Shown: positions 5,094 through 45,873 of the stretch, one piece after another
Numbering within the stretch: position 1 is the first letter of the stretch
Layout: each line of letters opens with the position of its first letter
Assembly: GCA_023382455.1 (NCBI GenBank)
Contig: JAHDVX010000005.1
Location: forward strand, 133,861-197,860
Direction of reading: 5' to 3'
Source: Flavobacteriales bacterium
Lineage (GTDB): Bacteria > Bacteroidota > Bacteroidia > Flavobacteriales_F > PHOS-HE28
Length of the DNA: 64,000 nt
Notes under the pieces: generated by a model
Databases searched by the model: none
Told to the model about the DNA's origin: nothing
What the model saw: the letters and a program-made list of their open reading frames with translations, nothing else
Position numbers and translations under genes: made by a program

Positions 5094-6655
5094 GCGTCCG
5101 TGCCGGGCTTGGCGTCCTCCTCCAGCAGGTCCGGGGGCACGGCCGGCGAAAGTGCGGCGGACAGCAGGCGGTCCACGGCGCGGTCCGCGCTTTGCTTGTC
5201 CTGCGCGATGCCACGCTCGGCGAGCTTCTTGCCCTCCTTGCGGATGAGGTATTTCACCACCTCCTCATGCACCTCCAGCCCGGTGTTGGTGATGAAGCAG
5301 ACCTTGCTGCGCGTCCAGTGCCAGATCAGCAGCGTGGCCAGGCGGATGGAGGTGCGGTCATGCACGCGGCCGCCTTGCACCACCAGCCCTTGGTGGCCCG
5401 GATACTGGACCAGGGCGTGGAGCACCGTGCGGATGCAACGCTGCATCCCCTCGGTGGTGAGGTCGCCGGCCGGGTGCATCACCAGGTCCTCGGGGGTGCT
5501 GGTGTCCGGCCGTTGGAAGTACATCTGGTGGGAGCGGGGCATGCTCTTGTTGAACTCGGCCATGGCGGGGTTCACCAGGCCGGGGAGGGCCACCAGCGTA
5601 CCGTCATGCCCGTCCACCGCCTCGCGTTCCTTGTCCGCCAGCATCTCCAGGAAATCGGCGCGCAGCACGCCGTCCGGCTGGGGCGGCAGAACGAAGGCCG
5701 GTGCGCCGATGGCGTGTGCCTGGCGGCGGTGGCAGATGCTGATGGTGCGCAGGCTGGCGCTGCGCAGGAAATGCGCATTCAGCCCGATGTGCTCCCGGTC
5801 GGGCAGCACGGGCTTGTCCGGGTGGCTGAACAAGGCCACATGGTCGGCGGCGAAGGCCTGCGGGGCCATGGCCAACCCGGCGGAATGGTGCCGCAGTTCG
5901 TGCAGCACCTCGTCGGCCTCCAGCAGCACGGCCAGGCTGTCCATCATCACCGTGGCCTTGAAGGTGCCGCGCGCGAATTCAAGCCGGTCCTCCAGCAGGC
6001 TGAAGATCTCCTTCCACAGCCGCGCTTCCGCATGGCCGCCCAGGTCGCGCAGGTACAGGTACACGCCGCCTTGGCGCAGGCGCATGCGCTCGGCACTGAG
6101 CACGGCCACCAGGGCCAGGTCCACGAAGGTGGCGGCCAGGGGTTCGCCGGGCGTGCCGATGCAATGGTCCGTGGCGTGCAGCGGCCGGGGCACCACCATC
6201 AGGCGCGTGGTGCTTCCGGGGTTGATCCGTACCCGCGATCCGTCGTTGCCCACGTAGGCGAGGTGCAGTGCGGCGGCCCGCTCGATGTTCTTGTGGGCCC
6301 GAAGGATGGCGCCCCGCTCATTGGGCGTCATGTCCCAGAGGTCGGCCACATAGCTCTTGGCCCCGGCGTTCATGCCGTCGATCAGTTCCTTTCGGCTGCA
6401 TCCCCCGATCAGTTCCACCCGGCGTTCCAGCAATTCGGCCGGCACAGGGTCCACCTGCCAGTTGCCATGCCGCGTGGCCGCGGTCTCCGCGAGCTCGCCC
6501 ACGGACCCCGTCCGCAGGGCATCGCGGCGCGCTTCCCCTTGCTGCAGCACCTGTAGCCGCTGCTCGCCGAAGCGCGCGTGGAGCAGGTGCACCAGCTCCA
6601 TCACCGCAGGGGTGAACAAGCGGTCCGTGTTGCGGGCTGTCAAGGTGGTCGGCAT
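5090..6655 (-). CDS. aceB: malate synthase A
   Basis: 521 aa, collinear with E. coli AceB (RRVEL.G..RKELIDGMNAGAK...DLWD; DGHDGTLVALPGL; EGMQRCIR). No isocitrate lyase gene is present in the window. Confidence 0.9.
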   Translation of the reverse strand: MPTTLTARNTDRLFTPAVMELVHLLHARFGEQRLQVLQQGEARRDALRTGSVGELAETAATRHGNWQVDPVPAELLERRVELIGGCSRKELIDGMNAGAKSYVADLWDMTPNERGAILRAHKNIERAAALHLAYVGNDGSRVRINPGSTTRLMVVPRPLHATDHCIGTPGEPLAATFVDLALVAVLSAERMRLRQGGVYLYLRDLGGHAEARLWKEIFSLLEDRLEFARGTFKATVMMDSLAVLLEADEVLHELRHHSAGLAMAPQAFAADHVALFSHPDKPVLPDREHIGLNAHFLRSASLRTISICHRRQAHAIGAPAFVLPPQPDGVLRADFLEMLADKEREAVDGHDGTLVALPGLVNPAMAEFNKSMPRSHQMYFQRPDTSTPEDLVMHPAGDLTTEGMQRCIRTVLHALVQYPGHQGLVVQGGRVHDRTSIRLATLLIWHWTRSKVCFITNTGLEVHEEVVKYLIRKEGKKLAERGIAQDKQSADRAVDRLLSAALSPAVPPDLLEEDAKPGTDA

Positions 6656-35571: not shown

Positions 35572-35692
35572 ATGGTCAACCGGTAAGGTTGCCCCAAAGG
35601 TAGAAAAGCACGCGCCGACACGCCCCGGGTCCGCCCCGGTTGTGAACAATGGGCGGTGCACCCTTTTTGCTCCAACTGCTTGATGCTCTCGG

Positions 35693-35700
35693 TACTTTTG
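35693..35700 (+). promoter_or_regulatory. TACTTTTG -7 box (perfect TAnnTTTG) ~57 nt upstream of the glmM ATG
   Basis: Seen directly in the TPR/glmM divergent intergenic region. Confidence 0.4.
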
Positions 35701-35757
35701 CAGCCCTTCATCCCGGGTCCGGCACGGGGTGGCAATCTCCCCGAAGCGACAAATACC

Positions 35758-37149
35758 ATGACCTTGATCCGTTCCATTTCCGGCATCCGCGGCACCATCG
35801 GCGGAAAGCCCGGCGAAGGCCTTTCACCGATCGATGTGGTGCGCTACACCGCCGCCTTCGGCCAGATCATGAAGCAGCAGGCGGCAAAGGACCGCCCCAA
35901 GGTGGTGGTGGGCCGCGATGCCCGCCCCAGCGGCCCCATGGTGGCCGACCTGGTGCGCGGCACGTTGGTCGGCCTCGGCTTTGAAGTGATCGACCTCGGG
36001 CTGGCCACCACCCCCACCACCGAGATGGCCGTGGCCGGGGAGAAAGCCGATGCCGGCATCATCCTCACCGCCAGCCACAACCCCAAGCAGTGGAATGCCC
36101 TGAAGCTGCTCAACGCCAAGGGGGAGTTCATCAGCGCGGAGCTGGGGGCCGAAGTGCTCCGCTTGGCGGAGCGCGAGGAGTTTGCCTTCGCACCGGTGGA
36201 TGACCTGGGCACTGTGCGCGTGGATGAAAGCTGGACCGACAAGCACATCGCGGCCATCCTTGCACTGGACCTGGTGGATGTGCAGGCCATCCGGGCCAGT
36301 AGATTCAAGGTGGCCGTGGATGCCGTGAACTCCGTGGGCGGCATCGCCGTGCCCAAGCTGCTGAAGGCCCTGGGCGTGGCCGAGGTGGTGGAGGTGAACT
36401 GCACGCCCGATGGCCAATTCGCACATAACCCGGAGCCGCTGCCGGCCCACCTCGCCGACCTCAGTGCGGCCGTAGCGAAGGAGAAGGCCGATCTCGGCAT
36501 CTCCGTGGATCCCGACGTGGACCGCTTGGCGCTGGTCTGCGAGGACGGCTCCTTCTTCGGCGAGGAATACACCTTGGTGGCCTGCGCCGATCACGTGTTG
36601 GCCCACCGGCCCGGCGACACCGTGAGCAACCTGAGCAGCAGCCGCGCCCTGGACGATGTGGCCGCACGCCATGGCCGCAAGCGCCACGCCAGCGCCGTGG
36701 GCGAGGTGAACGTGGTGGAGCTGATGCGCCAAGTGAACGCGCCGATCGGCGGCGAAGGTAACGGCGGGGTGATCCTCAGCGAGCTGCACTACGGCCGCGA
36801 TGCGCTCGTGGGCATCGCGCTCTTTCTCACCCTGCTCGCCAAGAAGGGCATGAAGACCAGCGCACTGCGGAAGAGCTATCCGGACTATTTCATCAGCAAA
36901 AACAAGATCGAACTGAGCCCAGGAATGGATGTGCAAGCATTGGTGGATGCCATGCAGCAACGCCACAAAAACCAGCCCCACAGCACCGTGGACGGCCTCC
37001 GCATCGAGTTCGGCAAGGAATGGGTGCACCTGCGCAAGAGCAACACCGAGCCTATCATCCGCATCTATGCCGAAAGCGCTTCCAAGGAAAGCGCCGATGC
37101 ACTGGCGGAGCGAATCATGGCGGAGATGAAGGAGTTGGTGGTGGCGTAA
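35758..37149 (+). CDS. glmM: phosphoglucosamine mutase / phosphomannomutase family
   Basis: SISGIRG, TASHNP phosphoserine loop, GEGNGG sugar-binding motif. 463 aa. Confidence 0.85.
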   Translation: MTLIRSISGIRGTIGGKPGEGLSPIDVVRYTAAFGQIMKQQAAKDRPKVVVGRDARPSGPMVADLVRGTLVGLGFEVIDLGLATTPTTEMAVAGEKADAGIILTASHNPKQWNALKLLNAKGEFISAELGAEVLRLAEREEFAFAPVDDLGTVRVDESWTDKHIAAILALDLVDVQAIRASRFKVAVDAVNSVGGIAVPKLLKALGVAEVVEVNCTPDGQFAHNPEPLPAHLADLSAAVAKEKADLGISVDPDVDRLALVCEDGSFFGEEYTLVACADHVLAHRPGDTVSNLSSSRALDDVAARHGRKRHASAVGEVNVVELMRQVNAPIGGEGNGGVILSELHYGRDALVGIALFLTLLAKKGMKTSALRKSYPDYFISKNKIELSPGMDVQALVDAMQQRHKNQPHSTVDGLRIEFGKEWVHLRKSNTEPIIRIYAESASKESADALAERIMAEMKELVVA

Positions 37150-37985
37150 ATCGAATCGTCCATTAAATTGATTGGTACGAAGGTGACCTCATACGAGGTA
37201 TATTATACAATGAAGAGGCTTTGTTACTTAAATGACATTCTTTTCATTCCGAATATACGAGCTAAGCCATGGAATGTAGCCCTGACTAACTAATTTCAAT
37301 CGGTTATTTGACTTGCTCCGTACATTATCAAGCACCCAAGCAGTAAACCTTTTTGTCTCTTCAAGTGTAGTATCGTCCTTATCGCAAAACATCCAAGTGT
37401 TATTTTTTTTCCATATTATCCAGCTGTATTTCTGTACATGACATATAGCTTGTATGTGATTTATATTTTTTGATAGCCATGACTTGTCATGACCATTTTT
37501 CAATTCGGATATGCGATTTCCAGTAAAGCCGATTATGCCCTTTAAGACACTTATATCGCTTTTTAATCTTTTACTCTTATTCATGACTGAATCGAAATGT
37601 TTGAATTTTTCTTCTGTATCTTCTATTGATTTCTTGGTTAATGATGACTTCACCTCAATAACTGCCAGTACACTTTCATATGGAAAAACACCTAATCCAC
37701 TATTCTTAATTATCGGCGGTAAAATGCGATTATCCGTAATTATTATGTCCATCTGGTGACTTTGATTTCCATAAGCGTCCACGACTATTCCTGTTCCTAT
37801 GTCAAATTGGCTTGTTAAGTAGTTTGATAATAATTCACTTGTAAACAATTCTCTAAGTTCGCCCTTTGTTAGTTTGTGATTGAGCTTGGTTAATGATAAT
37901 ACGCGCTCATAAAAGCCCTTGAATTGGGCACTTGCATAGTCTTTAATCAACGTGCTATTGGTCATTCTGAGCAACAGTTAAGATT
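37150..37985. mobile_element. AT-rich (~36% GC) ~0.8-kb foreign insertion between glmM and the parDE module, carrying a single gene
   Basis: Abrupt GC drop from ~65% to ~36% at both edges. The right edge falls inside the parE coding region. Confidence 0.7.
37228..37974 (-). CDS. hypothetical PD-(D/E)xK nuclease-like protein (248 aa) on the AT-rich insertion
   Basis: QMDIIITD ... x30 ... VLAVIEVKSSL fits a D...(D/E)xK restriction-endonuclease-fold core. AT-rich codon usage is foreign to this genome. Confidence 0.5.
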   Translation of the reverse strand: MLRMTNSTLIKDYASAQFKGFYERVLSLTKLNHKLTKGELRELFTSELLSNYLTSQFDIGTGIVVDAYGNQSHQMDIIITDNRILPPIIKNSGLGVFPYESVLAVIEVKSSLTKKSIEDTEEKFKHFDSVMNKSKRLKSDISVLKGIIGFTGNRISELKNGHDKSWLSKNINHIQAICHVQKYSWIIWKKNNTWMFCDKDDTTLEETKRFTAWVLDNVRSKSNNRLKLVSQGYIPWLSSYIRNEKNVI

Positions 37986-38163
37986 TTGCTGATTCGTAGT
38001 TCATCCCGGAAGGCGGTGTGTTAGCGGCTTCCTGGCAGCCATGGATCAAAAGCCTGTAATAGGTCTCAGCCTGTTGCTCGGACCATCGCTTGATCGTGTA
38101 GGCCCAAATTAAGTTCAGTTCAGCAATGGCCTTGCGGCTCAGGACGAACCTGCGGTTAGCCAT
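37978..38163 (-). pseudogene. parE: C-terminally truncated ParE/RelE-family toxin (61 of ~95-100 aa)
   Basis: LSRKAIAELNLIWAYTIKRWSEQQAETYYRLLIHGCQEAANTPPSGMNYESAKS matches the ParE N-terminal two-thirds. The ORF terminates exactly where the AT-rich DNA begins, and the expected C-terminal beta-sheet region is absent. Confidence 0.6.
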
Positions 38164-38401
38164 GTTTGCGGGCCTTCAGTTCCTGGAGATGCCTTTCCGG
38201 GTCGAAGTCGGGGTCGAAACCACTTTCAATGCCTTCGTCTATGGCATGCTGAAGCGCCAAGATTCGCTTCTCATCGGGTTCCAATAGGCGAATACCTGCA
38301 CGGATCACCTCGCTCACATTCCGGTACCTGCCACTGGTGATCTGTCGCTGTATGAATTGCTCGAAATGTTCACCCAACGAAACGGAAGTGTTGCTCGCCA
38401 T
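38156..38401 (-). CDS. parD: ParD/CopG-family antitoxin
   Basis: 81 aa ribbon-helix-helix antitoxin ([41 protein letters not shown]). Overlaps parE by 8 nt. A TACTTTTG -7 box (38418-38425, minus strand) lies ~19 nt upstream. Confidence 0.8.
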
Positions 38402-38547
38402 GGAAGTTGACTTTGAACAAAAGTACCAATAACGGGTAAGTGGGAAATCCTTCTGCATATCGCTTCCCGCTCCCCATGCCCGCCAGCGCTTTAACCGTTG
38501 CTGAGGAATGGGGCAGCCTCCCCGCAACTCCGTAATTTCGCCGCCCC

Positions 38548-39687
38548 ATGGAACGCATCTATCTCGACAACGCCGCCACTACCCAACTGGACCCCGAGGT
38601 GATTGAGGCCATGCTGCCCTACATGCACGAGGTCTACGGAAACCCCAGCGCCATCCATGCCTTCGGGCGCAAGGCGCGGGCCGGCATCGAGCAGGCGCGG
38701 CGCATGGTGGCCAAGCTGCTCCACTGCGCACCGGGCGAGATCGTCTTCACCAGCTGCGGCACCGAGGCCGACAACATGGCCGTGTTCGGCAGTGTGCGCG
38801 ACCTGGGCGTGAAGCACGTGATCACCTCGCCCATTGAGCACCATGCCGTGGAGCATGTGGCCCAAGCGCTGGAGCGTACCAAGGAGGCCGAGGTGCATTG
38901 GCTGCGGCTGCAACCCGACGGCAAGGCCGACCTGGCCCACCTGGAGGAGTTGCTGAAGGCGCACCAGAACGTGCTGGTCTCGCTGATGCACGCCAACAAC
39001 GAACTGGGCACCCGCAACGACCTGATGGCCATCGGCACCCTCTGCCGCAAGTACGGCGCGCTTTTCCACACGGACACCGTGCAGACCATGGGCCACTACC
39101 GCTTCGACCTGGAACAGCTGCCCATCGACTTCCTCACCTGCAGCGCGCACAAATTCCATGGCCCCAAGGGCGTGGGCTTCCTGTACATGCGCAGCAGCTC
39201 GGTACTGCGGCCCATGATCGTGGGCGGGGCGCAGGAGCGCAACATGCGTGCCGGCACGGAGAACATCATCGGCATCGTGGCGCTGGCCAAGGCCATGGAA
39301 GTGGCCTACCGCGACCTCGATGAGCACCAGCGCCACATCCAGGCGTTGAAGGACCGCATGCGCGAGCGCATCCTGGCCAACATCCCCGGCAGCAGCGTCA
39401 ACGGCGACCCAAGCCCCGACAGCCTGTACACCGTGCTCAACATCCACCTGCCGGATGACGGCAAGGCCGAGATGCTGATCTACAACATGGACATCGAGGG
39501 CATCGCGTGCAGCGGCGGCAGCGCCTGCAGCAGCGGCAGCAACAAGGGCAGCCACGTGATCGACGCGCTCTATCCCGGCCGCATGGGCGCCAACATCCGC
39601 TTTTCCTTCAGCAAGTTCAACACCGAGGCCGACGTGGACCGCGCCGCGGAGGTGCTGGAGAAGGTGGTGATGCCGGTGGGGGTGTGA
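38548..39687 (+). CDS. cysteine desulfurase (NifS/IscS, class V aminotransferase)
   Basis: [13 protein letters not shown]-terminus, [13 protein letters not shown]-lysine, catalytic Cys loop [12 protein letters not shown]. 379 aa. Confidence 0.9.
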
Positions 39688-39696
39688 GTGGGTCCA

Positions 39697-39710
39697 GTTC
39701 TTAGTTGTCA
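39697..39710. repeat. two heptamer units (gttctta gttgtca) of the same family as the fabG-flanking arrays, in the 20-bp gap between the nifS stop and the HIRAN stop
   Basis: Seen directly; overlaps the HIRAN stop codon. This is the left boundary of the ~8-kb segment that ends at the nifS 3'-end remnant. Confidence 0.5.
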
Positions 39711-40244
39711 GATGCCGGTCGGGGGGGCATCCTCCTCCCCGCCGTATTCCGGCCGCAGCTTGTACCCCGCATCAGGCCGCGCCATGTACTCGTCCAAATA
39801 GGCGTCGAAGCTGGGGGTGCTGGGCAGCAGCAGGTACACCGAGAAGAAACATTGTTCCCACGGCGGCAGTTCGGGCGCGGTGTAGGCCACCTCGGCTTCC
39901 AGCAACAGGCCATGGTCCAACATGGCGGCCAGGCTGATGTTCTCGCCCATGGGCAGGTAGCCCAGCTTGTGCCCTTCCCAGTACACGGCCACGGCGTTGC
40001 TGTCGTGTTCATTGCCATGTTCGCGCACCAGGTCCAGCGGGTCCTGCGCCTTCATGCGATGGATCACCTTCGCACCATCGTGGTATTGAAAGCCGCGCAC
40101 GAAACTGTCGAACACGAACACCGAATGGCTATCCTTCGTCCAGGCCAAGCGGTCCTGCTCCTTGGCGCTCAGCAGCGTCCACGGCGGCAACGTCAGCAGC
40201 GCGGTGCCGCCCATCAGGCGCTTTAGGAAGGTGATGCGGTCCAT
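39708..40244 (-). CDS. HIRAN-domain protein (178 aa)
   Basis: HIRAN-like core ...EHDSNAVAVYWEGHKLGYLP.... ATG at 40244; the upstream part of the track ORF is non-coding-like. Confidence 0.65.
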   Translation of the reverse strand: MDRITFLKRLMGGTALLTLPPWTLLSAKEQDRLAWTKDSHSVFVFDSFVRGFQYHDGAKVIHRMKAQDPLDLVREHGNEHDSNAVAVYWEGHKLGYLPMGENISLAAMLDHGLLLEAEVAYTAPELPPWEQCFFSVYLLLPSTPSFDAYLDEYMARPDAGYKLRPEYGGEEDAPPTGI

Positions 40245-40346
40245 GGGGGGAAGGTAGGGTGATCCCGTGCGCCACCCCGAACCCGAAGATTTCCGGGGTC
40301 TGTCCGTTCCCAAATGCGATCTTCGCAAGGTAGCTTCCCGATCGCC

Positions 40347-40843
40347 ATGGACCTTACCCAATTGACCGATGCTGAACTTGAAGGCCTCAGGAAGATGCCC
40401 AAGCATGTCGTGAACGCTAAGGCCAGGACAGTACAGTACAGAAAGATGGAACGGACCAGCGTAACTACAACATTGTCAGCGACATCGGCAATCAGGAGTT
40501 CATCCTGTACTTGCGCCAGAACTTGCGGCCGGGCATGGAAGATGATTTCTCCTGTGGGCTCCGGATCGTAAGGCGGAACGGCCTTTCCTTGACCCTTTGC
40601 CGGTATAATGGTCCCAGCCATCGCCACAGGAATCATTTGGAAGGCAATGAGTTCAGGTTCAAGGCCCACATCCATCAGGCTACAGGGCGATATATCGATG
40701 CCGACTTACAGCCGGAAGGCTATGCAATTGATACCGACCGGTTCAGAACTTTGAAGGGCGCGCTCCACTGCTTGGTTCAGGATTGCGCTATTTCGGGCTT
40801 GGATACCGAAGCTGATGCACCTACGTTATTCGAAATGCCATGA
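40347..40843 (+). pseudogene. hypothetical gene disrupted by a 5-bp tandem duplication (ACAGT/AGTAC x2 at ~40428-40441)
   Basis: The N-terminus (MDLTQLTDAELEGLRKMPKHVVNAKARTVQ) is in frame 0 and the remainder (...KDGTDQRNYNIVSDIGNQEFILYLRQNL...TLFEMP) is in frame +2. Deleting one repeat unit restores a continuous 168-aa ORF. The 3' end overlaps the next gene as ATGA. Confidence 0.55.
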
Positions 40844-41622
40844 ACCTCGACCTCGATCAGCTCCAATCCAACCTTTGCAAGGCACTGTGCGCCGAGGTAC
40901 AGGTGGTGCCCCGGTCCAAGGACCTGGCCGTGGTGCTTACGCCATTCGAGTTTCCGGACGGTGATGCCTACCAACTCTATCTGAAGGAGTTGCAGGGAGG
41001 CAGACTTCGATTGAGCGACATGGGCCACACGTTGCTGCATCTCAGTTATGAGAACGAGACAGGCAAATTCCGCAATGGCACCAGGGCCAAATTGCTTGAA
41101 CGCATATTGGCCGAGACCGGTGTGGGCGAGGCGGATGGTGAATTTTATGTGGACACCGATCCCGCCGGTCTGGCACCAGCCATTTGGCATTTGGGGAAGG
41201 CGTTGGTGCAGGTGAACGACCTTACCTTCTTGAACCGGGAGCGGGCGGAAAGCACGTTCTATGAAGATCTGCGGGAGCAACTATTCGATCTGGTCCCGAA
41301 TGACAAGATCCAGGCGGACTACATCGTCCCGGAATTGCCGGAGGCCAAGTTGTACCCCATCGATTACCGGATAGAGGGCAAACATGCCCCGCTCTTTGTG
41401 CTGGGCATACCCAATAAGGACAAGGCGCAACTGGCCACGATCGTACTACAACAGTTGCAAGGCCAAGGCGTGGAGCACGAATCGCTCTTGATCTTCGCCG
41501 ACCAGACCGGCCTGCCCCGCAATGTATTGGCGCGCTTGAGCAATGTGGGCGGTGAACAGATCGCCAGCCTGGATGCGGAAGAGGATATCAAGCGTAAGAT
41601 CCTGCGGAAGGTGGCCGGTTAA
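40840..41622 (+). CDS. hypothetical protein (260 aa), translationally coupled to the upstream frameshifted gene; mid-GC (~52%)
   Basis: Clean ORF with ATG start and an ATGA overlap. Possibly a DUF1828-like family (uncertain). Confidence 0.55.
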   Translation: MNLDLDQLQSNLCKALCAEVQVVPRSKDLAVVLTPFEFPDGDAYQLYLKELQGGRLRLSDMGHTLLHLSYENETGKFRNGTRAKLLERILAETGVGEADGEFYVDTDPAGLAPAIWHLGKALVQVNDLTFLNRERAESTFYEDLREQLFDLVPNDKIQADYIVPELPEAKLYPIDYRIEGKHAPLFVLGIPNKDKAQLATIVLQQLQGQGVEHESLLIFADQTGLPRNVLARLSNVGGEQIASLDAEEDIKRKILRKVAG

Positions 41623-41943
41623 CAAACAGCATTTCAATCCAAGCTCCTATTCCGAGCCTGGTACGTATAGGCCCGGGGCCAGTAAGCATACCTCTACCCT
41701 TATGCGGTCACGGTATTTGAGGCTCCGACCTGACCAATGCTTGGCATGGTTGCGACTGGCATCCTGACCCGCGCAATGAGTTATTTTCCAGTGAACGGCG
41801 AGGATGTGCCCCTGCGCTGCATGGGCTTGCGATGGCAATGGTAAAGCATGGGGGAATCCAGCAAGAGCATCTTCGGGAGTTCACTTTTGCCGGCAGACCC
41901 TGCCCAAGAGCCATGCAGAGGCTGGAATCACTGTGGATCGGCT

Positions 41944-42312
41944 TCACAATGGGAATTTCTTCTCATCCAAGGCATTGGCTGCGATCTGCGCTGCTTGGCC
42001 GAGTTCCTCCGCGCAAGTGGCATTCTTGGTAAATTCCATGGCTAGGACCAGTTGGGCACGTTTCTGTTGATCGTTCATGGATGCCAACAATTTCTCTATG
42101 GCCTTCCGTAGCCTGCCCTTTATCTGTTTTCTGAGCTCCTTCGGACTGATGCCAATTTGCGGCTTGCCTGATCTTTCTCTTTCCTCGTGGTACGCTAATC
42201 CGATCAAATCCTTTTCCGATGGGTCCCGGGCATCACCGGTACCATATTTCTTGCCCCGCACATGGAGGCACACCACTTCATAGGCCATTGCTGCCTTCTC
42301 AATGTTCGTCAT
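41944..42312 (-). CDS. hypothetical protein (122 aa), mid-GC
   Basis: Clean ORF, ATG start, 37-bp gap to the upstream co-oriented gene. Confidence 0.45.
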   Translation of the reverse strand: MTNIEKAAMAYEVVCLHVRGKKYGTGDARDPSEKDLIGLAYHEERERSGKPQIGISPKELRKQIKGRLRKAIEKLLASMNDQQKRAQLVLAMEFTKNATCAEELGQAAQIAANALDEKKFPL

Positions 42313-42348
42313 GACCTCGCTGTTCTGTAATCGTCACCTTTGACTTTT

Positions 42349-42918
42349 CTAAGCCCCTGCGGGCAGGTACGCCGAAAGGGATCCCATGGCCCCTGCAATT
42401 TTTTCCACCAGCGGTTTCGCCACCGCCTCGGATACCATCCCGGCCGCCACCCAATCGCCTACCGTCCCGGCAAACTGCCGTTTCCATTTCCGCTTGCCTA
42501 AATACATCAGATCCTTCAGGTCTTCCACGTCCTGGGCAATGATGCCCTGTCCGTCCCTGATCTGTTCGAGGTCCTTGAGGATCTGGTCCAAGCGATCCAG
42601 CATGGAATCCCGTTCTTCCGGCGTAAAGGCATCCTCATCCACATTCACCCCCAGGCGAGCCAGTTCCTGGTTCAGGAAGTAGCTGTTTTTCGGGTACGCC
42701 TTTTCATACGAACAATTCGGGCTGGTGCAGTTGGTCGCACGGTGTTCCATGATCCATTTGACCTGGTCTTCCAACAGAATGGTGAGAAAGTCGATCCGGT
42801 CTTTCCTGGAGTCGATCTCGTGTGCCGCCTGCCTCGCCTTGGGCAGGTAGTCCTTCGATTCGTAGTAGTTCCTGTTCTTTTTGGTAAACTCTTCAGCGAG
42901 CTGGCGGATGACATTCAT
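42349..42918 (-). CDS. hypothetical protein (189 aa), mid-GC, divergent from the MmeI-like gene
   Basis: Clean ORF, protein-like composition (CTSPNC motif, coiled-coil-like C-terminal half). Confidence 0.5.
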   Translation of the reverse strand: MNVIRQLAEEFTKKNRNYYESKDYLPKARQAAHEIDSRKDRIDFLTILLEDQVKWIMEHRATNCTSPNCSYEKAYPKNSYFLNQELARLGVNVDEDAFTPEERDSMLDRLDQILKDLEQIRDGQGIIAQDVEDLKDLMYLGKRKWKRQFAGTVGDWVAAGMVSEAVAKPLVEKIAGAMGSLSAYLPAGA

Positions 42919-43026
42919 GTTTCGAGTGGGTTGACGGCTATTTTGTCAAGTGAGGTTTAGTAAGATATGCCGCAAGGTGCAGCCCGTACACGGTAGTTAT
43001 CCACATCCTTCCCCATCTTCGCCTCC

Positions 43027-45873
43027 ATGCCGCTCAGCCGCCGCGAGATCCGCACCCGGGCCGTCCGTTTTGTGAAGCACTGGAAGGAGGCCGCCAACGA
43101 GGAGGCCGACGCCAAGCCCTTCTGGTACGAGTTCTTCCACATCTTCGGCATCCGCGCACGCACCGTGGGCAGCTACGAAGTACACGTGCGCAAGCTGGAC
43201 AATGCCCTGGGTAAGATCGACTACTTCTGGCCCGGACTGCTGCTGATCGAGCACAAGAGCCGTGGCCGCGACCTGCAGAAGGCCGCCGTGCAGGCCGCCG
43301 ACTACCTCCATGGCGTAAAGGAGCATGAGAAGCCCCGCTACATCATCGTCAGCGATTTTACACGCTTCGTGCTGCATGACCTGGAGGAGGGCAGCGAAAT
43401 CGAACTGGCCCTGGAGGAACTGCCGGAACGCATCGGCCTCTTCGACTTCATCGCCGGCTACGAGGCGCGGCCCGTGCGCGAGCAGGACCCCGTGAACATC
43501 CGCGCCGCCGAGCTGATGGGCCAATTGCACGACGAGCTCAAGGCCTCCGGCTATGCCGGCAAGGAGCTGGAAGTCTACCTCGTGCGCCTGCTCTTCATCC
43601 TCTTCGCCGACGATACCGGCATCTTCGAGCTCGATGCCTTCTACAACTACATCGTGGACCAAACGCGTGAGGACGGCACCGACCTCGGCCCGCAACTGGC
43701 CCGCCTGTTCCAACTGCTGAACACCCCGCCGGAAAAGCGCCAGAAGAACCTGGACGAGCGCCTGGCCGACTTCAAATACATCAACGGAAAGCTCTTCGCC
43801 GAGCCGCTGCCCATCGCCGATTGGAACGGCGGCATGCGCGTCACCTTGCTGGAATGCGCCAGCCTCAACTGGAGCCGCATCAGCCCGGCCATCTTCGGCG
43901 CCCTCTTCCAAAGCGCCATGGACGCCAAGGCCCGCCGCAACCTCGGCGCGCACTACACCAGCGAGGCCAACATCCTCAAGCTCATCAAGCCGCTCTTCCT
44001 CGATGAACTCTGGGCCGAGTTCGAGAAAGTGAAGGGCAGCAAGCCCAAGCTGGACCGGTTCCACAAGAAGCTCAGCGAACTGCGCTTCCTGGACCCCGCC
44101 TGCGGCTGCGGAAACTTTCTGGTGATCACCTACCGCGAGCTGCGCGAACTGGAGATCGCCGTGATAACCGCGCAACTGAAAGGCCAGCAGGTGGTGGACG
44201 TGGACAAGCTGGTGCTGCTGAACGTGGACCGCTTCTACGGCATCGAGATCGAGGAATTCCCCGCGCAGATAGCCCAGGTGGCCCTCTGGCTGATGGACCA
44301 CCAGATGAACCAGCGCATCAGCGCCGCTTTTGGCGAGTACATGGTGCGCATCCCGCTGCGGGCCAGCGCCACCATTTTATGCGCGAATGCGTTGCGTACC
44401 GATTGGCAAAGCCTGCTGCCGGATGGCGAGCGGTACGATTACATACTTGGGAATCCGCCGTTCATCGGCAGTAAACTGATGACCCCTGAAATGCGCGCGG
44501 CCATCCTGCGCATCTTCCCCGGGGTGAATGGCGCGGGCACATTGGATTTCGTGTGCGGCTGGTACGGTCTGGCCGTGCAGTACATGAAGGCACAGCGTGT
44601 CAGGCCGAGCGAAGCCGAGCAGCGTGTCAGGCCGAGCGAAGCCGAGCAGCGTGTCAGGCCGAGCGAAGCCGAGGCCACACGCTGCGCTTTTGTGAGCACC
44701 AACAGCATTACGCAGGGCGAACAAGTGGGCGCACTGTGGGGACCGCTGCTTGCCCAAGGCATCAAGATCCACTTTGCACACCGCACCTTCCGCTGGAACA
44801 ACGAGGCCCGTGGCGTGGCCGCTGTGCACTGCGTCATCATCGGCTTCGCGGATCACGATACGGACAAGAAGCACCTCTTCAGCTACGCCGATGAACGCGG
44901 CGAAGCGGAAGAACAGTTGGTGCGGAACATCAACCCGTACCTGGTGGATGGGCCGGACGTGGTGATCCGCAGCCGAAGCAAGCCGCTTTGCAAGGTGCCA
45001 GAGATCGGCATTGGAAACAAGCCCATCGACGGAGGTAACTACCTCTTCACCGATGAGGAGAAGGCTGCGTTCATCCATTTGGAACCAGCGTCCAAGAAGT
45101 ATTTCAGGCGCTGGTTGGGCAGTGATGAATTCATCAACGGCTGGCACCGCTGGTGCCTTTGGCTAGGCGAAGCGGCTCCAGGTGAGTTGCGCTCCATGCC
45201 GGAGGTGATGAAGCGCGTGGAAGCCGTGCGCAGGTTGCGGCTGGAGAGCAAGAGCGCGCCCACCCGCAAGCTGGCCGAAACCCCGACCCGCTTCCATGTG
45301 GAGAACATGCCGAAGAAGGAATACCTGATCATTCCGGAAGTTTCTTCGGAACGGCGGCCATTCATTCCGATCGGCTTCGAGAACCCAAGTACGCTTGCAA
45401 GCAACTTGGTCAAGATCCTTCCCAACGCATCGAAATACCACTTCGGCATCCTGAGCAGCACCATGCACAATGCGTGGATGCGAGCCGTCTGTGGAAGGTT
45501 GAAGAGTGACTACCGCTACTCCAAGGACATTGTCTACAACAACTTCCCTTGGCCCACCAATCCTACTGTCGCGCAACAGGCGGCCGTGGAGCAGGCCGCG
45601 CAAGGCGTGCTGGATGCGCGTGCAGCGCACACCACCCCTGTCAGTTCGAGCGCAGCCGAGAACGGCAGGGGTGCCAGCCTCGCCGACCTCTACGACCCGC
45701 TCACCATGCCGCCCAACCTGGTAAAGGCCCACGCCGCGCTGGACAAGGCCGTGGACAGGTGCTATAGGCCGCAAGCCTTCGAGAGCGATGCCAAACGGGT
45801 GGAGTACTTGTTCGGGTTGTATGAGAAGTACACGGCGGGGTTGGTGGGGGTGAAGTTGACCAAGAAGATGTGA
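43027..45873 (+). CDS. MmeI-family Type IIL restriction-modification enzyme (fused PD-ExK endonuclease + gamma-class N6-adenine methyltransferase + TRD), 948 aa
   Basis: N-terminal D-x-EHK nuclease motif (GKIDYFWPGLLLIEHKSRGRDL) closely resembling the MmeI N-terminus; DPACGCGNFL (motif I), ILGNPPF (motif IV), FVSTNSITQGEQV; length close to MmeI (919 aa). Confidence 0.85.
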   Translation: MPLSRREIRTRAVRFVKHWKEAANEEADAKPFWYEFFHIFGIRARTVGSYEVHVRKLDNALGKIDYFWPGLLLIEHKSRGRDLQKAAVQAADYLHGVKEHEKPRYIIVSDFTRFVLHDLEEGSEIELALEELPERIGLFDFIAGYEARPVREQDPVNIRAAELMGQLHDELKASGYAGKELEVYLVRLLFILFADDTGIFELDAFYNYIVDQTREDGTDLGPQLARLFQLLNTPPEKRQKNLDERLADFKYINGKLFAEPLPIADWNGGMRVTLLECASLNWSRISPAIFGALFQSAMDAKARRNLGAHYTSEANILKLIKPLFLDELWAEFEKVKGSKPKLDRFHKKLSELRFLDPACGCGNFLVITYRELRELEIAVITAQLKGQQVVDVDKLVLLNVDRFYGIEIEEFPAQIAQVALWLMDHQMNQRISAAFGEYMVRIPLRASATILCANALRTDWQSLLPDGERYDYILGNPPFIGSKLMTPEMRAAILRIFPGVNGAGTLDFVCGWYGLAVQYMKAQRVRPSEAEQRVRPSEAEQRVRPSEAEATRCAFVSTNSITQGEQVGALWGPLLAQGIKIHFAHRTFRWNNEARGVAAVHCVIIGFADHDTDKKHLFSYADERGEAEEQLVRNINPYLVDGPDVVIRSRSKPLCKVPEIGIGNKPIDGGNYLFTDEEKAAFIHLEPASKKYFRRWLGSDEFINGWHRWCLWLGEAAPGELRSMPEVMKRVEAVRRLRLESKSAPTRKLAETPTRFHVENMPKKEYLIIPEVSSERRPFIPIGFENPSTLASNLVKILPNASKYHFGILSSTMHNAWMRAVCGRLKSDYRYSKDIVYNNFPWPTNPTVAQQAAVEQAAQGVLDARAAHTTPVSSSAAENGRGASLADLYDPLTMPPNLVKAHAALDKAVDRCYRPQAFESDAKRVEYLFGLYEKYTAGLVGVKLTKKM
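44593..44673 (+). repeat. perfect 27-bp x3 in-frame tandem repeat (cagcgtgtcaggccgagcgaagccgag) inside the MmeI-like gene, encoding (QRVRPSEAE)x3
   Basis: Seen directly. Located between the MTase motif IV region and the FVSTNS motif. Confidence 0.85.

Follow-up and report, generated by a model that had tools for sequence, protein, structure and literature searches.

What becomes of a toxin–antitoxin (TA) locus when its toxin gene is cut short and a gene of foreign composition takes up the vacated place? The question is raised by a parDE-type locus of a Flavobacteriales bacterium, which lies in the 64,000-nucleotide (64-kb) stretch of contig JAHDVX010000005.1 (assembly GCA_023382455.1) analysed here and hereafter called the window. 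In it an intact antitoxin gene, parD, is followed by a truncated toxin gene, parE', and then by an AT-rich segment coding for a PD-(D/E)xK nuclease-like protein. Our overall reading, to which we give a probability of roughly 0.6, is that a low-GC single-gene cassette replaced the 3' end of parE, and that it encodes a stand-alone anti-phage nuclease which is independent of cyclic tri-AMP (cA3) and driven by the parD promoter.

The segment is set apart by its composition. The guanine-plus-cytosine (GC) content, taken over 200 nucleotides (nt) at a time, is 0.60–0.72 up to ~36900, 0.31–0.37 over 37200–37999 and 0.65 again by 38500, and only one of the 64 1-kb bins lies below 0.53 (bin 37001–38000, 0.385). 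The nuclease gene has a GC of 0.35 against 0.64 in the remainder of the window, and 0.36 at third codon positions, where the native genes have 0.8–0.9. An earlier note, made from the sequence alone, had described such a GC drop over a segment of one gene, and this description holds. It had also read the gene as an open reading frame (ORF) of 248 amino acids (aa). That ORF is present at full extent (37228–37974, minus strand, from a TTG at 37974), but the more likely start is the ATG at 37965, which yields 245 aa, is called on 20 of 20 related contigs and is where the family alignment begins.

How the segment came to lie there is revealed by a syntenic relative. Apart from the fragment itself (P0121), which occurs on 20 contigs, a protein search with the 61-aa ParE' fragment returned a single protein, the ParE P0122 of 101 aa. 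The locus of P0122, L097, is syntenic with the window and has no gene of DUF6602, the family of the nuclease; its order is aminotransferase, ParD (83 aa), ParE (101 aa), GlmM, TPR protein, ComA, rhodanese, VTT and shikimate dehydrogenase. The flanks of the two loci share 91.5% (desulfurase) and 88.3% (glmM) nucleotide identity. The parD–parE region is 70% identical up to window position 38006, and homology picks up at the glmM stop codon, at 37147. Because the syntenic orthologue has 101 aa and shares 68% identity with the part that is left, the parE ORF of the window is truncated, as the earlier note had proposed. Furthermore, since L097 has an intact ParE and no nuclease gene, foreign DNA must have replaced the 3' part of parE together with the spacer to glmM.

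The comparison with relatives that carry an intact parE, suggested in the same note as a way to define the insertion point and any target-site duplication, bounds both breakpoints. On the 5' side, in-frame similarity is traceable at most to ParE codon 57 (...SGMNY in the window versus ...SGAAY in L097), and the breakpoint can be placed only between parE codons 53 and 58 (window 38005–37990). On the 3' side, the glmM stop codon is TAA in the window and in L006, which both bear the insert, and TGA in L097, L127 and L131, which do not; this places the junction at or within the stop codon. Between these points, ~841–856 bp of AT-rich DNA (37150 to 37990–38005) stands in place of ~240 bp in L097, that is, of the last 45–48 parE codons and the 100-bp parE–glmM spacer. 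The junctions show no target-site duplication and no terminal direct or inverted repeats beyond chance. The foreign origin claimed earlier is thus upheld by the absence of the segment from the syntenic L097, L127 and L131 and by closest homologues in low-GC Bacteroidia, but the event was insertion plus deletion, a replacement of ~240 bp, rather than a pure insertion.

The 3' spacer of the segment (37150–37227) contains no terminator-like site and gives no fold signal (z = −0.07), Rfam yielded no match, and scans for sigma-70-type promoters and terminators stayed at chance level. As to the traits of an integron cassette, repeats, folding and the junctions themselves were examined: there are no inverted repeats beyond chance, no fold signal in the 3' spacer and, on inspection of the junctions by eye, no GTTRRRY core sites. 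One repeat-like feature deserves mention. The 12 nt 5' of the nuclease ATG (37966–37977) are the reverse complement, at 11 of 12 positions, of parE' codons 27–31 (38071–38082); both arms are kept in both parE' alleles (described below), and the pairing appears in the centroid fold of the window. As a structure, this inverted repeat was set aside, the folding z-scores (−0.28 and −1.13) giving it no support.

Table 1. Features of the parD–parE'–nuclease locus (positions of the window)
Feature	Coordinates	Strand	Basis or remark
glmM-type phosphoglucosamine mutase (PGM/PMM family)	35656–37149	+	native flank; four PGM_PMM Pfam domains
Foreign AT-rich segment, ~841–856 bp	37150–38005	strandless	GC 0.31–0.37; no counterpart in L097, L127, L131
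78-nt 3' spacer of the cassette, nuclease stop to glmM stop	37150–37227	−	91% identical in L006
DUF6602/NucC-fold PD-(D/E)xK endonuclease (predicted), 245 aa	37228–37965	−	Pfam, PADLOC, PDB, AlphaFold2/Foldseek
12-nt leader, parE' stop to nuclease ATG	37966–37977	−	direct sequence reading
parE' remnant, 61 aa: ~53–57 native ParE codons, then insert-supplied codons and stop	37978–38163	−	
parD antitoxin, intact, 81 aa; 8-nt overlap with parE' start	38156–38401	−	Pfam ParD, TIGR02606
Probable parD promoter: TACTTTTG (−7 type) box and overlapping short palindrome	38404–38425	−	putative function
Class-V aminotransferase/cysteine desulfurase	38548–39687	+	native flank; Pfam Aminotran_5, 4.9e-80

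What, then, does the cassette encode? Pfam assigns the protein to DUF6602 (PF20247; 90.8 bits against a cut-off of 27, 6e-26) over residues 29–128 of the 248-aa ORF, or 26–125 from the ATG. In PADLOC it is matched by the CRISPR-associated PD_DExK profile (1.5e-32) and, at 2e-22 and 2e-20, by two profiles for NucC effectors; none of the three reaches beyond residues ~10–139. Searched against PDB sequences, it retrieves NucC proteins only (4e-12), again through the ~125 residues of its N-terminal half; the C-terminal half alone has no match there. An AlphaFold2 model of the monomer, built from 96 homologues, is of high confidence (predicted local distance difference test 92.7, predicted template-modelling score 0.90). 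When it was compared with the PDB by Foldseek, the top 14 matches were all NucC (E values 6e-13 to 9e-11, template-modelling (TM) scores 0.63–0.73, 225–256 columns), and the next fold, BbvCI, followed at 9e-3. The nuclease fold suggested in the earlier note is confirmed by these searches, and the protein, as judged from its profiles and its model, is a PD-(D/E)xK enzyme of the NucC fold and the DUF6602 family with predicted DNase activity.

The active site agrees with this assignment. The catalytic motif, MD73-x30-E104-V-K106, has a numbering identical to the IDx30EAK of NucC, and D73, E104 and K106 are kept in 174–180 of 181 close relatives. The likeness to NucC comprises the full-chain fold, a similar length (241–256 aa) and the common motif (I/M)D73-x30-E104-(A/V)-K106. 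NucC itself is a homotrimer with a cA3 pocket, whose double-strand cleavage depends on hexamer formation and which acts by abortive infection; in Escherichia coli NucC, mutation of either R53 or Y81, both of which contact cA3, abolishes activation (10.1101/694703). In NucC, Thr226 and Val227 contact phosphate and adenine, and His136 and Tyr141 form the latch of the gate loop. Its PDB entries include 6p7o, 6p7p, 6q1h, 6uxf and 7zgv.

It is at these two positions that the clade of the window protein departs from NucC. The three solved NucC enzymes, from Serratia, Vibrio metoecus and E. coli, all have R53 and Y81, whereas none of the 181 close relatives has R at position 53 or Y at position 81: 155 have Q at the former and 172 have I, V or L at the latter. 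The C-terminal half, unrecognisable by sequence, has a conserved residue set of its own (W182, E203, K205, F207, D213, R216 and Y237). In addition, the segment between helix 111–127 and strand 141–148, which sits roughly at the position of the NucC gate loop, is short, modelled with lower confidence, and varies more between the window and L006 than any other part.

These differences bear directly on the idea that the protein is a true NucC effector, activated by cA3 made elsewhere in the genome by the CD-NTase of a CBASS (cyclic-oligonucleotide-based anti-phage signalling system) or by the Cas10 of a type III CRISPR system. The full-length fold, the identical motif numbering and the PADLOC matches to NucC and to the CRISPR-associated PD_DExK profile would all suit such an effector, and the cyclase scan spans 64 kb of the genome. 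On the other hand, the two residues that E. coli NucC requires are Q and I/V/L across the clade, and the NucC hidden Markov models match only residues ~10–139. Furthermore, the gene is solitary: a scan of the window's 43 other predicted proteins found no CD-NTase or Cas10, and there was none beside the homologues on the five long contigs examined (L001, L003, L107, L108 and L110). The protein thus resembles NucC proper in fold and catalytic site but not in the ligand contacts R53 and Y81 or, over the DNA scanned, in its genomic associations, and we regard cA3-dependent activation as most improbable. Since both the cA3 contacts and a partner cyclase are missing, activation would have to differ from that of NucC.

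By domain, the closest validated relative is Damona, one of 16 chromosomal integron cassettes of Vibrio cholerae that protect against phage when expressed (10.1101/2024.07.02.601686); it was compared through its published description. A DUF6602 domain is present in Damona too, and the profiles that recognise it are those of Cas PD_DExK and of CBASS small endonucleases (10.1101/2024.07.02.601686), so that both proteins come from a single small DUF6602 gene with the same profile signature. Moreover, integron cassettes are promoter-less, and TA cassettes give weak promoters in the array (10.1101/2024.07.02.601686); the window gene is likewise predicted to be a promoter-less cassette that relies on an upstream promoter. 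The two differ in host phylum, and, no attC-like repeats having been found, the window gene is probably not an integron cassette.

An exhaustive profile search of 1.84 billion cluster representatives at 50% identity gave 98 matches at E ≤ 1e-30; relaxing the threshold to 1e-10 raised the number to 2465, and a threshold of 1e-3 raised it to 6718. Named members occur in Bacteroidia, Thermodesulfovibrionales, Syntrophobacteraceae, Nitrosopumilales and Asgard archaea. The best homologues are 55–66% identical and lie on Bacteroidia contigs of 31–45% GC. In every host examined the GC of the nuclease gene is below that of its flanks, by 29 points in the window and by 3–10 points elsewhere. In these searches the family is rare, patchy and horizontally scattered. 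The possibility allowed for in the earlier note, that this might be a common housekeeping family of Bacteroidota, is ruled out by the absence of the gene from syntenic relatives, by its rarity and by its GC below that of the host everywhere.

The neighbourhoods of the homologues are varied. All five on long contigs are solitary: that of L107 directly follows a phage-type integrase, with an HTH_17 gene and a terminase small-subunit-like gene nearby; that of L003 follows an FRG-domain protein; that of L110 precedes an HNH_5 protein; that of L001 follows a Por-secretion-tail protein; and that of L108 lies between genes of unknown function and TonB-dependent receptors. In viral contigs and a phage collection the matches were distant and confined to the N-terminal half, and those on plasmids are 26–35% identical, solitary or fused, and uninformative for the window clade. 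On the Xanthomonas plasmid pXAC219 (L105, 6013–7222), a distant DUF6602 homologue (28% identical) has a small HD-domain gene 17 nt downstream, so that the family may include a version made up of two genes.

Could the gene be a mere passenger, that is, a selfish or neutral gene, or a nuclease of DNA repair or recombination, that settled in a TA locus already dying? The site is certainly tolerant of rearrangement, with parE decaying repeatedly in lineages that have no nuclease (see below), several homologues sit in ordinary chromosomal contexts, and the family is rare on phage contigs. Against this stand the significant purifying selection on the gene, the strict conservation of catalytic and C-terminal residues in ~180 bacterial and archaeal relatives, the patchy distribution of the kind left by horizontal gene transfer together with the GC below that of the host everywhere, and the fact that all DUF6602 and NucC proteins characterised so far serve to defend against phage. 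We therefore consider a passenger without a role in defence unlikely.

The selection just mentioned was seen by comparing the window with L006, which has the same gene order, aligns to the window without gaps at 91% identity and has identical junctions. For the nuclease, the ratio of nonsynonymous to synonymous divergence (dN/dS) is 0.22 (dN 0.041, dS 0.182; Fisher p = 1e-6), and the gene is under purifying selection. For parE' it is 0.62 (p = 0.22), which is indistinguishable from neutral. The parE' product meets the Pfam ParE_toxin profile (PF05016) with 23.2 bits at a cut-off of 23, over profile positions 2–48 of 89 only, that is, over less than a complete fold.

The replacement is by no means confined to one genome. 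The parD–parE'–nuclease–glmM order was found on 20 contigs from many samples, and L087 (GCA_048500375.1) and the window share 100% identity across 8 kb. Two parE' alleles exist, ~16% apart: A in the window and L089, and B in L006, L128 and L129. Although L128 is ~99.9% identical to the window elsewhere, its parE' allele is B, within a patch (38350–37980) that ends exactly at the parE' stop codon, and the glmM identities among relatives are also mosaic. The allele patch and the mosaic glmM imply that the locus is exchanged by homologous recombination between related lineages; the replacement is common to at least two diverged sequence types, and recombination has shuffled it. The patch is ~370 bp long (window 37980–38350 versus L128 3300–3670), with 29 mismatches in ~200 bp, and consists of the L006-type allele of the parD 3' end and parE'. 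The relatives were gathered through protein searches with ParE' and ParD. A GlmM scan of genome contigs gave a best match of only 66% identity and no close species representatives, and a scan of metagenome contigs with the ParE' fragment gave 600 pattern matches, of which none was confirmed.

Whether the nuclease gene disarmed the toxin, as the earlier note supposed, can be judged from sister lineages. In L127, whose ParD is 85% identical, ParE codons 1–24 only are left; the next 543 bp are unrelated DNA with an ordinary GC, after which comes GlmM. In L131 (ParD 74% identical; 5240–5275), parE ends after ~8 codons and the glmM stop lies 8 nt on, a clean deletion. The toxin has thus been inactivated at least three times independently, with the antitoxin kept each time, and the nuclease insertion is one such event. 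Independent losses of parE without a nuclease mean that the nuclease need not have disarmed the toxin; its insertion may have caused the loss of parE, or it may have arrived in a toxin gene already dispensable. That part of the earlier claim survives as a possibility, not as a requirement. Two side observations concern these relatives. The unrelated DNA of L127 (841–1383) holds a 132-aa ORF on the opposite strand with an N-terminus resembling a signal peptide and lipobox (lipoprotein-like) and with no Pfam match, and the orphan parD of L131 lies directly downstream of two hydrolase-like ORFs.

The antitoxin has fared differently from the toxin. ParD matches the Pfam ParD profile (PF03693) over positions 1–77 of 81 (87.5 bits, 7.8e-25) and TIGR02606 with 92.6 bits (cut-off 46.2; 1e-26). 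Its start is the ATG at 38401, which gives 81 aa and is backed by the family length of 81–83 aa and by the Pfam match; some gene callers lengthen the protein to 100 aa (longest ORF 123 aa) through upstream starts in 38402–38527. A parD is kept in every lineage sampled at the locus, be parE intact, replaced by the nuclease, replaced by another ORF or deleted, and its dN/dS is 0.12–0.17, with dS up to 1.1, among lineages that are all without a functional ParE. Degenerate parDE loci with an orphan ParD are the known counterpart: here, too, the toxin is inactivated, antitoxin and promoter persist, and relatives show intact, truncated and deleted states. What sets the window apart is the foreign nuclease gene that took the place of the lost part of the toxin and now sits where the operon had its toxin.

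This arrangement invites the thought that ParD and the nuclease form a new TA pair, in which the nuclease is the toxin, held in check by the ParD protein or by ParD-controlled transcription and freed when ParD is degraded. The nuclease gene lies exactly in the toxin slot, 12 nt past the parE' stop codon and behind an intact parD, promoter and palindrome; parD is under purifying selection; and TA promoters drive promoter-less defence cassettes in integron arrays (10.1101/2024.07.02.601686). Elsewhere, however, homologues of the nuclease have no antitoxin-like gene upstream, so the enzyme is not constitutively toxic, and parD is equally conserved without the nuclease in L127 and L131. In ParDE complexes, moreover, the C-terminus of ParD is specific for the ParE fold. 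A TA pair of this kind is, in our judgement, very unlikely.

The expression of the nuclease gene is more readily explained. The TACTTTTG box lies at 38425–38418 on the minus strand, 16 nt ahead of the parD ATG, so the intact ParD with its promoter box reported in the earlier note is substantiated. Boxes of the form TAnnTTTG number seven in the 64 kb, which is the chance number; the parD box and two near 35600–35700 sit just upstream of gene starts. The parD box overlaps a short palindrome (ACTTT N5 AAGT-like; CTTTG..CAAAG), and box and CTTTG..CAAAG palindrome recur in L097 (5735–5760) and, with one mismatch, in L127 (505–530), that is, in three diverged lineages. The palindrome may be the operator of ParD. 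Between parD and the nuclease ATG there is no TAnnTTTG box but only sites with one mismatch, which are not conserved in allele B, and the 12-nt leader between parE' stop and nuclease ATG leaves no room for a nuclease promoter inside the insert. Given this spacing, the 8-nt overlap of parE' and parD and the lack of an intervening box, the nuclease gene is most likely expressed from the parD promoter, as the last of three cistrons on a single predicted parD–parE'–nuclease transcript.

A bolder view of the same operon is that parD–parE'–nuclease is an exapted hybrid, in which the TA promoter and a labile ParD repressor gate a ligand-independent NucC-fold nuclease, and in which the loss of ParD upon phage infection or a shut-off of host transcription would lead to a burst of nuclease. 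We consider this distinctly unlikely. If true, it would mean that a TA chassis had been re-armed with a defence effector instead of a gyrase poison.

Taking these results together, we propose the following for the cA3-independent, stand-alone nuclease. In an ancestor of the lineage, illegitimate recombination, which left no repeats and no duplication, would have put a single-gene cassette without a promoter of its own in place of the last 45% of parE (its 3' part) and of the spacer to glmM; the donor would have been of low GC and was probably another member of the Bacteroidota. The ParE fragment, without the C-terminal half of the toxin fold, is a decaying remnant, and parD and its promoter are intact. 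The cassette product would be a Mg2+-dependent PD-(D/E)xK DNA endonuclease of the NucC fold (DUF6602), transcribed as the third cistron of a ParD-autoregulated operon, which would keep the DNase at a low level. By analogy with Damona and NucC, its role would be that of a Damona-type stand-alone nuclease cutting DNA during phage infection. Activation would probably be by something other than cA3: the enzyme might bind a different ligand through the C-terminal region peculiar to its clade, recognise modified DNA or be controlled through its expression level. The replacement with its junctions, the fold, the catalytic residues, the purifying selection, the solitary contexts and the recurrent independent loss of parE are shown by the data, and it is from them that co-transcription, DNase activity, the role in defence and the mode of activation are inferred.

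A role in defence is suggested by the company of the gene: the window has nearby a HIRAN protein and a DUF1828 protein, which match the PADLOC candidate defence families PDC-M03B and PDC-M24B, and a type IIG restriction–modification (R-M) enzyme, and homologues lie by FRG, integrase and HNH genes. The defence function that the earlier note put forward is a candidate by homology. Several points weigh against the reading nonetheless. Three of the five homologue contexts resemble ordinary chromosome. The link between the window protein and Damona is made by domain and profile description only. The cyclase scan covered 64 kb of the genome, and the C-terminal half, having no sequence similarity to solved proteins, may retain some ligand pocket. 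As to the operon, parD appears equally constrained in nuclease-free lineages, so its retention is uninformative about the nuclease, and the predicted co-transcription is based on spacing and on the absence of a promoter box.

Events of this kind are known, and the present one is a well-documented case of them, not a new kind of system; DUF6602 has been described but barely studied. Its value lies first in a natural before-and-after series at one chromosomal TA locus, with intact, nuclease-replaced, ORF-replaced and deleted toxin. It also marks a small, scattered NucC-fold clade (~100 clusters at 50% identity) in which the catalytic site is kept, the cA3 contacts are absent and no cyclase partner was found. 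Should its members be active defence enzymes, they would illustrate how an effector fold that otherwise depends on a signal can act by itself and, being compact, would lend themselves to the question of what stands in for the second messenger.

The defence-related neighbours of the window belong to a strain-variable islet of lower GC (39708–45873; 0.53–0.57 at 40.3–43 kb) beyond the desulfurase gene, in which the type IIG R-M enzyme is of the MmeI family and which also holds two small unknown ORFs. The islet is absent in L095, and in other strains the same position is taken by DUF6978 or an IS200-type Y1 transposase.

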